Below are positions 5,904 to 39,942 of a stretch of DNA of 64,000 nucleotides, one piece after another. The notes under the pieces are model-generated. The model ran no database searches. It saw only the letters and a list, made by a program, of their open reading frames with translations, and had not been told where the DNA came from. The stretch's first letter is position 1; each line of letters begins with the position of its first letter. The stretch lies in the NCBI GenBank assembly GCA_047602405.1, contig JASGHJ010000002.1:2176001-2240000 (forward strand), in the 5' to 3' direction. The stretch comes from Anaeromyxobacteraceae bacterium (GTDB lineage Bacteria > Myxococcota > Myxococcia > Myxococcales > Anaeromyxobacteraceae). The position numbers were made by a program, and so were the translations under genes.

Positions 5904-7115
5904 TCAGGCGTCGCCGCCCGACGGCACGAGGGCGCGCCAGTGCAGCAGCGCGGGGCCGGAGAGCGCGAACGGCATGAGCACCACGCCGAAGCGCGGGCCC
6001 TCGGCCCAGCAGAGCAGCACCCGCGCGTGGAAGGTGAAGGGGCGCGGCGAGAGCGCCTCCACCTCGACGAGGATGCCCTCGGGCAGCGGCACCGTCCCGC
6101 GCGCGTGCAGCTGGTGCGGGCCGAAGCCGGTCGCCTCGAAGTCGCCGCCGCCGATGTGCAGGTAGACCCGGCGCTCGCCCGCCGGCTGGGTGGGCACGTG
6201 CGACGGCCCCTCGAGCCAGCCGTGCTCGTCCGGGAGCGCGGGCTGCTCGAGCGAGGCCACGAACGACGGCAGCGCCTGGAGCGTGCGCTCGAGCGCGTCG
6301 GTGTCGGCCTCGGAGAGCTTCGTGAGCGCGGCCACCTCGGCGGGCCCGAGCGACGCGCGCTCCGAGAGGAGCCCCACCAGCGGATCGACCGTCCGCACGA
6401 GCTCGAGGAGCTCCGGCTCGCGCACGACCTTCGCGGCGTCGGAGTCCGGCGCGGCGTGGTGGTGGGCGATCACCTCGGCCACCACCTCCGGGAGCTGCCA
6501 GCGGGACGCGAGGACCTGGCCGATGTCGACGTGGTAGCGGTCCACCACCGCGCCCCAGAACGAGGCGGGCATGGCCCGCGCCGGCCGGGACCCCGCGGCG
6601 ATCCGCTCGATGGCCGCGATGGCGACGATCTTGCCGAAGTCGTGCAGGAGCCCGCAGGTGAAGGCGTCGTCGGCGGACACCTTGCGCACCCGCGCGAGGT
6701 CGCGGCACATCACGGCGGAGGCGAGCGCGTCGTGCCAGGCCCGCCGCCGGAGCGGCGCGAGCGGCCCCTTCGCCCCGGCGAAAGGCCCGAGCCCGAGCGC
6801 GAGCCCCAGGCGCGAGAGCTCCTCGGCGCCGATCCGCGCGGCCGCCGCCGGGAGGGAGGCGACCGGGGTGCCCCGCTGGTAGAGGGACGAGTTCGCGACG
6901 CGCAGGAGCTCGGCGGCGAGGGCCTGGTCGGTGCCGACGAGCCGGGCGAGCTCGTCGAGGCCGTAGTCGCCGCCGCGCACGAGGCGCGCGATGCGGAGCG
7001 CGACGGCCGGGTAAGGGGGCAGCTCGACCGCGTCGCGCGAGACGAGGTCGGCCATCGCCGTGTCGAGGTCGGTCTCGCTGCCGAACTCCGCGGCGCTGGC
7101 GCCCCCCGGGGTCAC
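5904..7115 (-). CDS. HDOD-domain protein with possible PilZ-like C-terminal domain (paralog 2)
   Basis: LPPYPAVA, DQALAAELLRVANSSLY, AFTCGLLHDFGKI, WQLP..VIAHHH; GTG 7115 overlaps the upstream stop. Confidence 0.85.
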   Translation of the reverse strand: MTPGGASAAEFGSETDLDTAMADLVSRDAVELPPYPAVALRIARLVRGGDYGLDELARLVGTDQALAAELLRVANSSLYQRGTPVASLPAAAARIGAEELSRLGLALGLGPFAGAKGPLAPLRRRAWHDALASAVMCRDLARVRKVSADDAFTCGLLHDFGKIVAIAAIERIAAGSRPARAMPASFWGAVVDRYHVDIGQVLASRWQLPEVVAEVIAHHHAAPDSDAAKVVREPELLELVRTVDPLVGLLSERASLGPAEVAALTKLSEADTDALERTLQALPSFVASLEQPALPDEHGWLEGPSHVPTQPAGERRVYLHIGGGDFEATGFGPHQLHARGTVPLPEGILVEVEALSPRPFTFHARVLLCWAEGPRFGVVLMPFALSGPALLHWRALVPSGGDA

Positions 7116-8293
7116 GCGGCCTCGCCCTCCGCGACGAGCGCCTTCCAGCGCCGGAGCGCCTCGCCGGTCAGGGCGTACGGCTGCACGAGCAGGGTCGCGC
7201 CGTCGCCCTCGGGCCAGGAGAGCTTCACGCTCGCGAAGCCCTCGAGCGGCGGGCTGCAGCCGACCTTCATGTGGAGGAGCATGTTCTCGGGCGCGGTGGT
7301 CGCCCCGGAGAGCATGATGTGCGTCGAGGCGACGCCGAGGATGCGGTAGGGCTGCTCGCGGCCGCCGAGGGCGAGCGTCACCGGGTACGAGGGCGGGGCC
7401 GGGGCCTCGCGGCGGACCGGGGCCTCGTGCGCGACCATCGTCTCGGCGGGCGCGCTCCACGCCTCGGCCGACTCGAACGACGCGACGAACGCCGGCAGGC
7501 CGTGCAGCGCGGCCACGACCACGTCGTGCTCCGCGGAGGCGAGCAGCGACGCGAGCCCGAGGTCCTCGGCCGGGAGCGCCACGCGGTCGCCGAGGAGCGC
7601 GACGACCTGGTCGGTCGCGGCGACGAGATCGACCAGGGCGGCGTCGGCCGCGGCCGCGGAGTCCCCGTGGTGGAGCGAGATGACGTCGGCGAGGAGCGGC
7701 GGCAGATCCCAGCGGGCCGCCATCACGATGCCGAGCTCGACGTGGTAGCGGTCGACCACCGCGTCCCACTCCTTCTCGGTCCGCGGCGGGAGGTCGGGGA
7801 CGCGCTCGACGATCTCCTCGATGCAGGCGATCGCCACCACCCGCCCGAAGTCGTGCAGGAGCCCCGCCGCGAAGGCGACGTCCGGCGCGAGCTTGCGCTT
7901 CGGCGCGATGGCCTGGGCGAGGAGCCCGGAGGCGAGCGCGTCGAGCCAGGCCCGGCGCCGCAGGCTCGCGAGCTTGCCGGCGGCGGTCGCGTGCGCCCCG
8001 AGCCCGGAGGCGAGCGCGAGCTTCGCGACGTCCTTCGCCCCGACCCGGGCCACCGCCTGCTTCACGGAGGTGGAGGTCGAGCCGCGCGAGTAGACGGCGG
8101 AGTTGGCGCAGCGGAGCACGTCCGCCGCGAGCACCTGGTCGGACGAGACGAGGCGGGCGAGGTCGTCCACGCCGTAGTCGCCCGTGCGCAGGAGCGCCTC
8201 GATGCGGAACGCGACGGCGGGGTACGGCGGCACCTTCACGGCGCCGCGCGAGACGAGGTCGACGATGGCCTGATCGAGGTCGAACGCGGGCAT
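7112..8293 (-). CDS. HDOD-domain protein with possible PilZ-like C-terminal domain (paralog 1)
   Basis: VPPYPAVA, DQVLAADVLRCANSAVY, AFAAGLLHDFGRV, WDLP..VISLHH. Confidence 0.88.
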   Translation of the reverse strand: MPAFDLDQAIVDLVSRGAVKVPPYPAVAFRIEALLRTGDYGVDDLARLVSSDQVLAADVLRCANSAVYSRGSTSTSVKQAVARVGAKDVAKLALASGLGAHATAAGKLASLRRRAWLDALASGLLAQAIAPKRKLAPDVAFAAGLLHDFGRVVAIACIEEIVERVPDLPPRTEKEWDAVVDRYHVELGIVMAARWDLPPLLADVISLHHGDSAAAADAALVDLVAATDQVVALLGDRVALPAEDLGLASLLASAEHDVVVAALHGLPAFVASFESAEAWSAPAETMVAHEAPVRREAPAPPSYPVTLALGGREQPYRILGVASTHIMLSGATTAPENMLLHMKVGCSPPLEGFASVKLSWPEGDGATLLVQPYALTGEALRRWKALVAEGEAA

Positions 8294-8393
8294 ATCCCGG
8301 CGCGAACATATCAGATCGTGCCCGCCGACCCGGCGCCCGCGGCGGCGGTCGCGCGCATCCCGCGCACACGGGACAGGCCTCGCGTACCCCCGC

Positions 8394-8660
8394 TCACCGG
8401 AGATCCTCGAGCAGCTCGGCCACCACGCGGTCCGCGGCCGTGGCGCCGAGCAGCGTCCGCAGCATCGGACGGAGCGCCTCGACCAGCCGCGGAGCGTCGG
8501 CGCTCACGACGGCCTCAGGCTTCTGCCCGAGCGCACGATCCGCGAACGAACGGACGGCCGTCCGCGCGGTGTTCGGGCCGAGGTAAGCCGAGAGCCGCGC
8601 GGCGATGCGATCCGCAGGGGTCACGGGGGGATCCAAGCGCTCCGAAGCTACCCTCGCCAT
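8394..8660 (-). CDS. Small helical hypothetical protein (start may be GTG 8624)
   Basis: 88-aa ORF, amphipathic pattern LSAYLGPNTARTAV...LVEALRPMLRTLLG. Confidence 0.65.
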   Translation of the reverse strand: MARVASERLDPPVTPADRIAARLSAYLGPNTARTAVRSFADRALGQKPEAVVSADAPRLVEALRPMLRTLLGATAADRVVAELLEDLR

Positions 8661-8702: not shown

Positions 8703-9302
8703 CTACCGGGTGAGGAGCCCCGGCAGCACCTCGGCGACGCCGAGCGCGATCTCGGGCCGGAGCCGCTCCCGGCAGCGCGACACGGCCTCGGCGGCGATCG
8801 CGGGCCAGGCCTCGTAGATCCACCCGCTGCTCGCGCGGCCACCCTCGGCGTGGGCCCGCTCCATCGCGCGGAAGAGCCCGGCGCGGATCGCCTCCGCGAC
8901 GGCCTCGCGCTCGTCGGCGTCCGCCCCGGTGCGGCGGGCTGCCTCGCCCGAGATGCGGACCGACAGCACCCGCGCCTCCACGAGCGAGATGAGCTGGACC
9001 TCGCCCGCCCGGAGCCAGGGGTCGCCGAGCTCGCGCCCCGAGAGCTGCGCCAGGGCCTCGTCGGGCGGGAGGATGCGCGCCCGCCCGGCGAGCACCTCGA
9101 CCGCCTCGGGCGCGACCCGGCCCGGGTCGGCTCCGGCCACGAGCTCGAGCCAGAAGAACCTCCCGGTGGCCTCGACCCGGGCGGCGCCGACACCGGTCAC
9201 GGCGGAGAGTCGCGCCAGCACGGGCGCGAGGACGGAGCCTCAGCCGAGGCCCGCCACCGGCCCTCAGCCGAACCCGTTCGCGAAGAGCACGAGGTTGCGC
9301 AT
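8703..9302 (-). CDS. Putative di-selenocysteine protein (U13, U21; U-x7-U) with HMA/ferredoxin-like N-terminus, 199 aa
   Basis: From ATG 9302: MRNLVLFANGFG-TGA(9266-9264)-GPVAGLG-TGA(9242-9240)-GSVLAPVLARLSAVTGVGAARVE, in frame with ORF 8703..9221. SECIS-like hairpin after each UGA; TACTGT -10-like box 7 nt upstream of the ATG. Confidence 0.75.
9210..9252 (-). promoter_or_regulatory. Two tandem bacterial SECIS-like hairpins
   Basis: GGGCCUC-GGCU-GAGGCUC (9252-9235) starts 11 nt after UGA1; UCGCGCC-CGUGCU-GGCGCGA (9229-9210) starts 10 nt after UGA2; both loops have G in position 1 or 2. Confidence 0.6.
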
Positions 9303-9354
9303 GCGCCCCACAGTACCCGACCACCCCCGGCCCGCCCACGTGCATCCTCGTCGC

Positions 9355-39410: not shown

Positions 39411-39942
39411 ATGGAGCTCGTGAAGGACGACGTCGCCGCCCTGCCGGTCACGGGCCTCGACGGCAAGCAGAATCCCGCTCGGCAGCCTCTGGGCCAGGGG
39501 CCCCGCGGTGGTGGTGTTCCTGCGCCACTTCGGTTGAATGTTCTGCCGGGAGCAGGCGGTGCAGTTGCACCGCGACAGGGCCCGCTTCGACGCCGCCGGC
39601 GCGCGCATCGCGTTCGTCGGGAACGGCACCCCGATGTTCGCCCGGACCTTCCAGGAGGACTACGGCCTCGACGAGCCGGTGCTCGTCGATCCGACGAGGA
39701 AGGTCTACAGGGCGCTCGGCTTCGGCCGGCTCACGCTCGGCTCGCTCGTCTCGCCGCGGTCGGTCCTCGCCGCCGCCCGCGCCCTCGCCGGCGGCTTCAT
39801 CCAGGGCCGCACGCAGGGCGACGCGCTCCAGCTGGGCGGCGTGCTGGTGGTGAAGCCGGGCGGCGAGATCGCCTACCGGTACCGCTCGGAGTTCGCCGGC
39901 GACCACCCGAAGCACGATGACGTGCTCGCGGCGCTGGGCTAG
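39411..39942 (+). CDS. AhpC/TSA (peroxiredoxin-like) selenoprotein with UxxC; one frameshift at ~39471
   Basis: Corrected reading MELVKDDVAALPVTGLDGKQIPLGSLWARGPAVVVFLRHFG-TGA(39535-39537)-MFCREQA...DPTRKVY...QGDALQLGG; hairpin GCGGUGC-AGUU-GCACCGC at 39556-39573. Confidence 0.85.

Follow-up and report, generated by a model that had tools for sequence, protein, structure and literature searches.

The canonical HMA site is G-M-x-C-x-x-C, which gives the places of two metal-ligand cysteines, and bacterial selenocysteine (Sec) insertion relies on SelB, which binds a hairpin downstream of a UGA codon and delivers Sec there. Several described selenoproteins resemble the one considered here. The UxxU protein NF041115 likewise has an HMA-type domain in which both metal ligands are Sec, encoded by two close UGA codons, and the MerT/CopZ fusion selenoprotein NF045683 likewise carries Sec in mercury/copper transport parts. 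MbdU (NF045648), TsoB (NF045694, UxxxxU) and the UxxU Prx-like proteins likewise contain two Sec per chain, within other motifs and folds as the catalogue presents them (PMC13188914). Table 1 of this 2026 catalogue holds 119 selenoprotein families, 14 of which, by our own count, have 2-3 Sec (PMC13188914).

The gene described here lies in a 64-kb window (the whole stretch of DNA that was analysed, 64,000 nucleotides) of the Anaeromyxobacteraceae genome G000. Its product differs from NF041115, whose model spans 74 positions, in its U-x7-U motif and its 108-aa helical domain; the query did not match the NF041115 model at E<=10, and its Cys homologs scored 12.9-14.8 bits against a cut-off of 95. 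With the HMA/CopZ/MerP/NmerA domains (PF00403) it shares the same predicted beta-alpha-beta-beta-alpha-beta order, the nearest structures being ZntA, ATP7B and Ccc2a, with the first ligand after a G-hydrophobic-x motif and the second at the start of helix 1. Unlike PF00403 domains, it has a five-residue insertion between the ligands (which are seven residues apart, not C-x-x-C) and Sec in place of Cys. The PF00403 gathering cut-off of 24.8 was not reached, the query being unmatched and the Cys homolog domains scoring 15-22 bits. In its presumed mode of action the protein resembles both the HMA/MerP-type binders and NF041115, but since spacing, score and architecture all differ, it is a member of neither family.

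Neither the query nor three relatives matched the NF045648, NF045694, NF045683 or UxxU Prx-like models, and Pfam and NCBIfam held no meaningful match for the 199-aa query. None of the 119 families in Table 1 of the catalogue is given a U-x7-U motif, some rows stating no motif (PMC13188914), and the U-x7-U protein is not among the 11 A. dehalogenans selenoproteins listed in PMC1794560. We found no description of a U-x7-U family in the literature searched; an earlier listing, for example in supplements, is possible. The initial annotation, made from the DNA alone, had not recognised a named selenoprotein family, and the curated models and the families tabulated in the catalogue (PMC13188914) bear this out. 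We regard the gene as representing a selenoprotein family that has gone unannotated, in which the ligand spacing is new, a two-domain form is cytoplasmic and the tandem SECIS elements are nested.

Gene frame and conservation of the UGA pair

Standard ORF calling sees only the last 172 codons of the gene. The initial annotation had extended this ORF upstream through two Gly-flanked TGA codons, and we reproduced the extension, which gives a protein of 199 aa. The features of the reading frame are as follows:

8703..9302, minus strand: full gene, 199 aa with both TGA codons read through, ending in TAG; same architecture in 62 distinct relatives
8703..9221, minus strand: table-11 ORF, 172 aa, starting at GTG 9221
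9310..9315, minus strand: -10-like hexamer TACTGT, ending 7 nt before the ATG
9264..9266, minus strand: TGA codon 13, probable Sec and first ligand, after G-F-G at the first-Cys position of the HMA motif; TGA in 62/62, Cys in aligned homologs
9240..9242, minus strand: TGA codon 21, probable Sec and second ligand, in the first turn of helix 1 (model helix 19-33); TGA in 62/62, aligned to Cys
9219..9221, minus strand: GTG codon 28, the start chosen by gene callers, within the loop of hairpin 2; no SD-like word or -10-like box in 62/62

Exactly two in-frame TGA codons, 13 and 21, lie between ATG 9302 and TAG 8703, each with Gly codons on both sides. The hexamer noted earlier ahead of ATG 9302 is present (9315-9310), and the absence of an RBS or -10 box at GTG 9221 holds in 62/62 loci. 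In 39 of 61 related loci the upstream start is preceded by a TANNNT box that ends 4-9 nt ahead of it; the same box occurs at none of 62 annotated GTG codons and at none of 449 internal ATG/GTG codons. A strict sigma-70 scan gave zero sites. A leaderless transcript from the upstream start is likely, judging from this sequence context. The start codon lies 12-17 codons upstream of the first TGA in 61 of 62 loci, the remaining one being cut by a contig end, and this leaves no room for a signal peptide.

The conservation of the UGA pair was assessed in 96 pooled genome and metagenome loci with a motif pattern that left both codon positions free. The 86 loci matched by this pattern (62 distinct) all have TGA at both positions, never TAA or TAG, although these loci are kin and the counts are not independent trials. 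Of the remaining 10 loci, seven do not extend across the motif, and three carry TGA at whichever of its two positions they include. The conservation of the pair extends down to ~40% protein identity. Codons 4-12 and 14-20 are stop-free and diverge most at third positions, as coding sequence does. A search of 61 relatives' genomes gave 15 matches in 13 of them, each with two TGA codons, and a profile search located the gene in 35 of 92 Anaeromyxobacteraceae genomes. The 41 profile matches in these 92 genomes comprise 37 with two TGAs, one with three and three that are stop-free; the stop-free matches do not reach the motif, and all 38 that cover it contain TGAs.

Protein databases present a different face of the same gene. 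Most homologs (82 of 90) are 168-180 aa long, three 199-aa homologs also start just past codon 21, and RefSeq WP_012097875.1, of 172 aa, is annotated as a cut-short hypothetical protein. Homologs beginning near residue 28 had been put forward as grounds for rejecting the extended frame; their DNA carries both TGAs, and they begin there because gene callers restart after the second TGA. The two positions are filled by Ala and Arg in one full-length database protein, P0085. The closest named relative among the matches listed is an Anaeromyxobacter record (L006, 88% identity), and the named homologs are Anaeromyxobacteraceae. A relative ~93% alike is present in contigs of four DNA sequencing runs; these contigs were left out of the counts, and none of the conclusions draws on the unpublished genome G280. 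Beyond the family, a draw of 400 genomes of the phylum gave one two-TGA copy, in G125; weak matches in G251 and G392 were inspected and set aside as unrelated. No relatives were found in viral contigs, nor in plasmids with one Cys query, and a feature search with a Cys homolog returned only leads below 0.9. At two loci (L009 and L010) the protein ends in Cys immediately before a TGA stop, possibly a third Sec codon.

The Sec machinery that the initial annotation wished to see confirmed is encoded in G000: selA, selB and selD exceed curated cut-offs, a tRNA-Sec is present and selD itself carries one TGA. TGA is also the main stop codon of this genome (586 of 1005 long ORFs), which rules out genome-wide reading of TGA as Trp or Cys. 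In the family, selA was matched in 84 of 92 genomes, including all 35 carriers of the gene, and none of the eight genomes without selA carries it. G125 combines the two-TGA gene with a tRNA-Sec and a selD that contains a TGA, but its assembly, 92% complete, yielded neither selA nor selB. G313 contains a Cys version of the gene and no Sec machinery over cut-off. As the conserved in-frame UGA codons stand where homologs have Cys, two selenocysteines are likely, and on this comparative evidence we put Sec insertion at codons 13 and 21 close to certainty.

G000 has further apparent selenoproteins, namely a thioredoxin-like UxxC protein, two formate dehydrogenases and SelD (C1:1785035, C2:776837, C2:3601568 and C2:257287, all on the plus strand). 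Within the window, 39411-39942 (plus strand) encodes an AhpC/TSA-family selenoprotein (PF13911, 75.9 bits) with a UxxC motif and its TGA at 39535-39537. Its likely ATG, 39411, is out of frame with the remainder, which implies a frameshift near 39470, either real or due to an assembly error.

Tandem SECIS-like hairpins

Each UGA codon is followed by a hairpin, and the two hairpins do not overlap:

9237..9250, minus strand: SECIS-like hairpin 1 core, 5 bp with a 4-nt loop, loop-first G at +19 from UGA1; pairs kept in 55-61/61, loop G in 61/61
9210..9229, minus strand: SECIS-like hairpin 2, 7 bp here (6 conserved) with a 6-nt loop, loop-second G at +19 from UGA2

The initial annotation had described a 7-bp hairpin 10-11 nt after each TGA. 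This stands for hairpin 2, which has 7 bp, starts 10 nt past UGA2 and folds at -12.2 kcal/mol; it does not stand for hairpin 1, whose perfect core of 5 bp starts 13 nt past UGA1 (-7.1 kcal/mol). In this genome hairpin 1 extends to 10 bp with a bulge (9230-9255, -17.1 kcal/mol). A loop G at position 1 or 2 had also been claimed, and it is found first in hairpin 1 and second in hairpin 2. Folding likewise bore out the placement of UGA2 within hairpin 1, its U being the last loop base and its GA lying in the stem.

Published criteria for bacterial SECIS elements include a loop of 3-9 nt, a stem of 4-16 bp, a G in the first two loop positions, a spacing of 16-37 nt and an MFE <= -7.5 (PMC13188914). 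Both hairpins fall within the criteria set out there, with spacings of 18 and 17 nt and the G in 61/61 sequences (PMC13188914). Window MFE passes in 61 of 62 loci for the first hairpin and 62 of 62 for the second, the 5-bp core of hairpin 1 alone being at -7.1. The two formate dehydrogenase UGA sites of G000 have their loop G at +19 and +20, matching the hairpins of this gene. Stability does not go beyond chance in a shuffle test of the 50-nt window after each UGA (z = -2.05 and +0.39). Conservation, unlike stability, does go beyond chance for the TGA pair, and it is striking in the hairpins too. Among 61 distinct sequences, third positions show no divergence in codons 25-30 (0.000) and a divergence of 0.16 in codons 18-22, whereas the flanking codons reach 0.39-0.46; the codons used in these frozen stretches make up 35-76% of those with which this genome encodes the amino acid concerned. 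Six pairs of hairpin 2 are kept in 60-61 of 61 sequences, with three loop variants that differ at one loop base. The stems are nearly invariant, with one-sided wobble only (C-G to U-G at one hairpin 1 pair, in 4 of 61); no two-sided, covarying stem change occurs in the 61 sequences, and two of the stem 1 bases are UGA2 itself.

From the general mode of bacterial Sec insertion, we infer that the simplest reading of these hairpins is a relay. SelB on hairpin 1 would deliver Sec at UGA1; the ribosome would then unwind hairpin 1, exposing UGA2 at the same distance from hairpin 2, and the two codons would be decoded in turn, each by its own element. The start, frame, TGA codons, hairpins, Sec machinery and Cys counterparts are observed, and with them sequential Sec decoding is very strongly indicated.

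Cysteine counterparts and predicted fold

A homolog search of 1.84 billion representatives gave 321 matches at E <= 0.001. Among the best 150 of these, 83 start directly behind the second site, 46 span the motif and 21 are other fragments. The 46 motif-covering representatives, within these best 150 of 321, include 45 with a Cys pair (44 C-x7-C and one C-x8-C), and a separate search found the C-x7-C motif in 47 of 52 proteins. The profile of the Sec forms matches the Cys protein P0125 with a probability of 97.6% over 188 columns, with Cys at both positions and the C-terminal domain included. The proteins with a C-x7-C motif that the initial annotation had mentioned thus exist, and their cysteines align to codons 13 and 21. 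They form an unnamed family (P0125, P0201, P0202, P0299 and relatives), homologous to the present protein over both domains, and mostly carry signal- or lipoprotein-like N-termini (judged by eye) or are fused to MerT or HMA domains. In contrast, the DNA-verified Sec forms have no space for a signal peptide. MerT exceeds its Pfam cut-off in five of 40 scanned Cys representatives (45 in total), and four more contain a canonical HMA domain. One Cys homolog, P0150, is a three-part fusion of a DF family (seleno)protein domain (over cut-off), MerT and the two domains of the U-x7-U family.

We inferred a tree from the shared region with FastTree and rooted it at the midpoint (142 rows; 29 short ones dropped). 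The 18 DNA-verified TGA sequences all belong to one 61-member group (support 0.96), together with 42 N-terminally truncated proteins and P0085; Cys forms are absent from it. A second group of 34 sequences comprises 33 truncated proteins and one Cys form, and a Cys group of 29 includes 3 truncated proteins. On this tree, truncation is a strong hint of TGA and no proof. More than 60 further 50%-identity clusters are truncated at the same place, which suggests that the Sec form may reach well beyond the family.

The protein is predicted to consist of two domains:

9069..9302, minus strand: predicted HMA-like beta-alpha-beta-beta-alpha-beta domain, residues 1-78 (model and fold ranking)
8706..9029, minus strand: predicted four-helix C-terminal domain, residues 92-199, no family match (model; common to Cys homologs)

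AlphaFold2, run with 84 sequences and U entered as C, gave a pLDDT of 91.6, and DSSP assigned beta-alpha-beta-beta-alpha-beta to residues 3-77 with helices after them. The motif loop, residues 11-20, has a pLDDT of 57 because the alignment lacks these residues. In a fold search of 48,161 chains the top four hits were HMA domains (rmsd 1.9-2.2 over 63-69 residues): ZntA (Z 7.9, rmsd 1.9, 69 aligned), ATP7B (7.8), Ccc2a (7.4) and 4a48 (7.4), all Z-scores being below 8, a level that the tool calls common. Weak sequence matches lean the same way: those to NmerA and CopA were not significant (E 0.06), and the Cys homologs match CopZ models weakly. The C-terminal domain, folded alone, gave four helices with a pLDDT of 94, and in the whole-model fold search it had only helical-bundle matches (Z <= 7.2). 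The HMA-like fold proposed earlier is thus supported by model and fold ranking, at middling Z.

In the model U13 follows G-F-G and U21 starts helix 1, which are the places of the two HMA cysteines. The earlier proposal that Sec replaces a Cys ligand pair agrees with the homologs, which have aligned Cys at both HMA-like positions. It is highly likely, on the predicted structure, that U13 and U21 replace both cysteines of the HMA G-M-x-C-x-x-C site, with five extra residues in the loop.

Neighbourhoods and candidate function

The copy in G000 stands between a divergent RidA-family gene on one side and HDOD genes on the other. Downstream, at 5904-8660 of the window (minus strand), lie an 88-aa ORF that Pfam does not match and a tandem pair of similar HDOD-type genes, of which the first was confirmed; only the closest relative retains this order. 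No neighbour gene is conserved across the 62 Sec-form loci. A hemerythrin-domain gene adjoins or lies near the Sec gene in several unrelated loci (L139, L142, L148, L009 and L054).

We scanned 150 ORFs in 15 loci with ~5 kb flanks, using heuristic ORF calls that cover 43-89% of each. Mercury genes were found in 3 of these 15 loci and were absent nearby in 12. This copy is not part of a mer operon; 2 of the 15 widely flanked relatives are (merT/merP/merA). G013 and G099 have an extra Sec-form copy in a merT-merP island, besides a copy elsewhere. There the start of the di-Sec gene overlaps the stop codon of a sensor-less sigma-54 activator (AAA+ and HTH only). Divergent from this activator stand merT, merP and the gene of a CopZ-N-terminal-type chaperone; in G013 merA also exceeds its cut-off. 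In G095, G093 and contig L071 the gene converges on hgcB-hgcA (HgcA 383.8 bits, cut-off 275). HgcA is over cut-off in 3 of 92 family genomes, and the gene is present in all three; it is absent from a fourth genome, whose hgcA is partial. At three loci belonging to the hgc-linked subtype, no hgcAB was seen within 1.4-2.9 kb. Together, the mer and hgc links probably reflect no more than two independent events. MerT fusion, mer island and hgcAB are three kinds of link, and all point to mercury. MerT, MerP and HgcA were unmatched in G000, and this, with the 12 of 15 loci that lack a mercury gene, means that mercury is not the whole story for this copy.

Two side observations concern the mercury loci themselves. 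An hgcA-hgcB pair with an upstream methyltransferase and an ArsR-type regulator occurs at L147:5946-8507 (G095), L097 (G093) and G022:C5:66457-67431. The sensor-less sigma-54 activator, with a conserved C-x4-C-G-P-C and divergent from merT/merP/chaperone/merA, recurs at L151-L161 (e.g. L137:1432-5382), in genomes G013, G099, G025, G017, G109, G085, G047, G400, G254, G180 and G339. The motif is present in 11 of 12 activator loci, 10 of those 11 having mer-type genes; six loci share an intergenic inverted repeat, and a sigma-54-like GG-N10-GG site is common to the two compared. We saw no MerR in either of the two 11-kb stretches that were scanned. From their gene content these loci look like a MerR-independent, sigma-54-driven mercury operon, and for a sigma-54-driven mer operon we found only a review listing in the literature.

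We favour, with a probability of roughly 0.6, the reading that the gene encodes a cytoplasmic di-Sec (U-x7-U) protein with a predicted HMA-like domain that binds a soft metal, most likely Hg(II), between two selenolates. The initial annotation had left metal-binding and redox roles open; the metal-binding part is favoured by the fusions and neighbours, which speak for mercury in particular. The candidate role, which we hold with similar, modest confidence, is that of a scavenger or chaperone for a soft metal, probably Hg(II), with a Se-metal-Se clamp. Such a high-affinity protein would hold incoming Hg(II) or related soft metals and would pass the held metal to MerA or HgcA where these are present, while the helical domain would serve partner contact. 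More tentatively, and with less than even odds, the widespread truncated U-x7-U family may consist of cytoplasmic di-Sec mercury chaperones, recruited separately to mer and hgcAB loci and made through a nested UGA relay.

The strongest rival, which we nevertheless regard as doubtful, is a double selenoprotein whose pair acts as a redox centre (a diselenide/selenol oxidoreductase or redox sensor) instead of a metal site. In the catalogue's account, a redox role is presumed for most prokaryotic selenoproteins (PMC13188914), and the majority of copies of this gene stand alone without metal genes. The L131 Cys form has a tail that by eye resembles a thioredoxin-like CxxC, and a truncated form, P0209, is fused to a phosphatase/sulfur-transferase-like domain. 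However, the modelled fold is HMA-like and not thioredoxin-like, and the MerT and HMA fusions are repeated and accompanied by mer and hgcAB neighbours.

The overlap of the gene start with the activator stop in G013 and G099, divergent from merT-merP-chaperone, would also suit a di-Sec metal sensor that acts in trans on the sensor-less activator of a MerR-free mer operon. This is improbable: the activator has its own C-x4-C-G-P-C in all but one of its 12 loci, the di-Sec gene stands beside only two, and G000 has no such island. The activator module lacks the di-Sec gene in 9 of 11 loci, so the gene is not a required partner.

A pair of UGA codons only eight codons apart could make full-length synthesis steeply selenium-dependent, and the protein could then serve mainly in selenium sensing or storage, with metal binding incidental. 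The promoter-like box of the gene and the strict use of Sec, with no Cys members in the 61-sequence clade, are in keeping with this. We hold it to be still less probable, since sel genes are not linked in the neighbourhoods seen and Cys homologs keep the whole two-domain protein.

Lastly, it is scarcely credible that the TGAs are true stops, the real protein starting at codon 24 or 28 and the codons before it being no more than a short leader or a pseudogenised N-terminus: TGA is indeed the commonest stop in this genome, most database homologs are short and 3 of 52 Cys-clade proteins are likewise called from the same internal start, but TGA alone occupies the two fixed positions in 62 of 62 sequences, homologs have Cys in register there, both TGAs lie downstream of strand beta-1, and codon 28 has neither an SD nor a -10-like box.

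A cytoplasmic di-Sec, putatively soft-metal-binding protein of this kind matters in several respects. It adds a selenoprotein family that is not recognisable in the curated models or the catalogue and is carried by 35 of 92 genomes of one bacterial family. The natural, conserved pair of UGA codons, eight codons apart and served by tandem SECIS elements, opens sequential multi-Sec decoding in bacteria to direct experiment, and tandem nested SECIS elements may aid the production of multi-Sec proteins. The x7 metal-site motif lies outside the catalogued ones and exists in exported Cys and cytoplasmic Sec versions, which offer a clean pair for gauging the contribution of selenium. The mer and hgcAB links bear on the interaction of selenium and mercury in cells. 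If the more tentative reading of a family of di-Sec mercury chaperones is true, the U-x7-U protein would be a candidate for the carrier that routes Hg(II) inside the cell, and would tie this routing to the supply of selenium.
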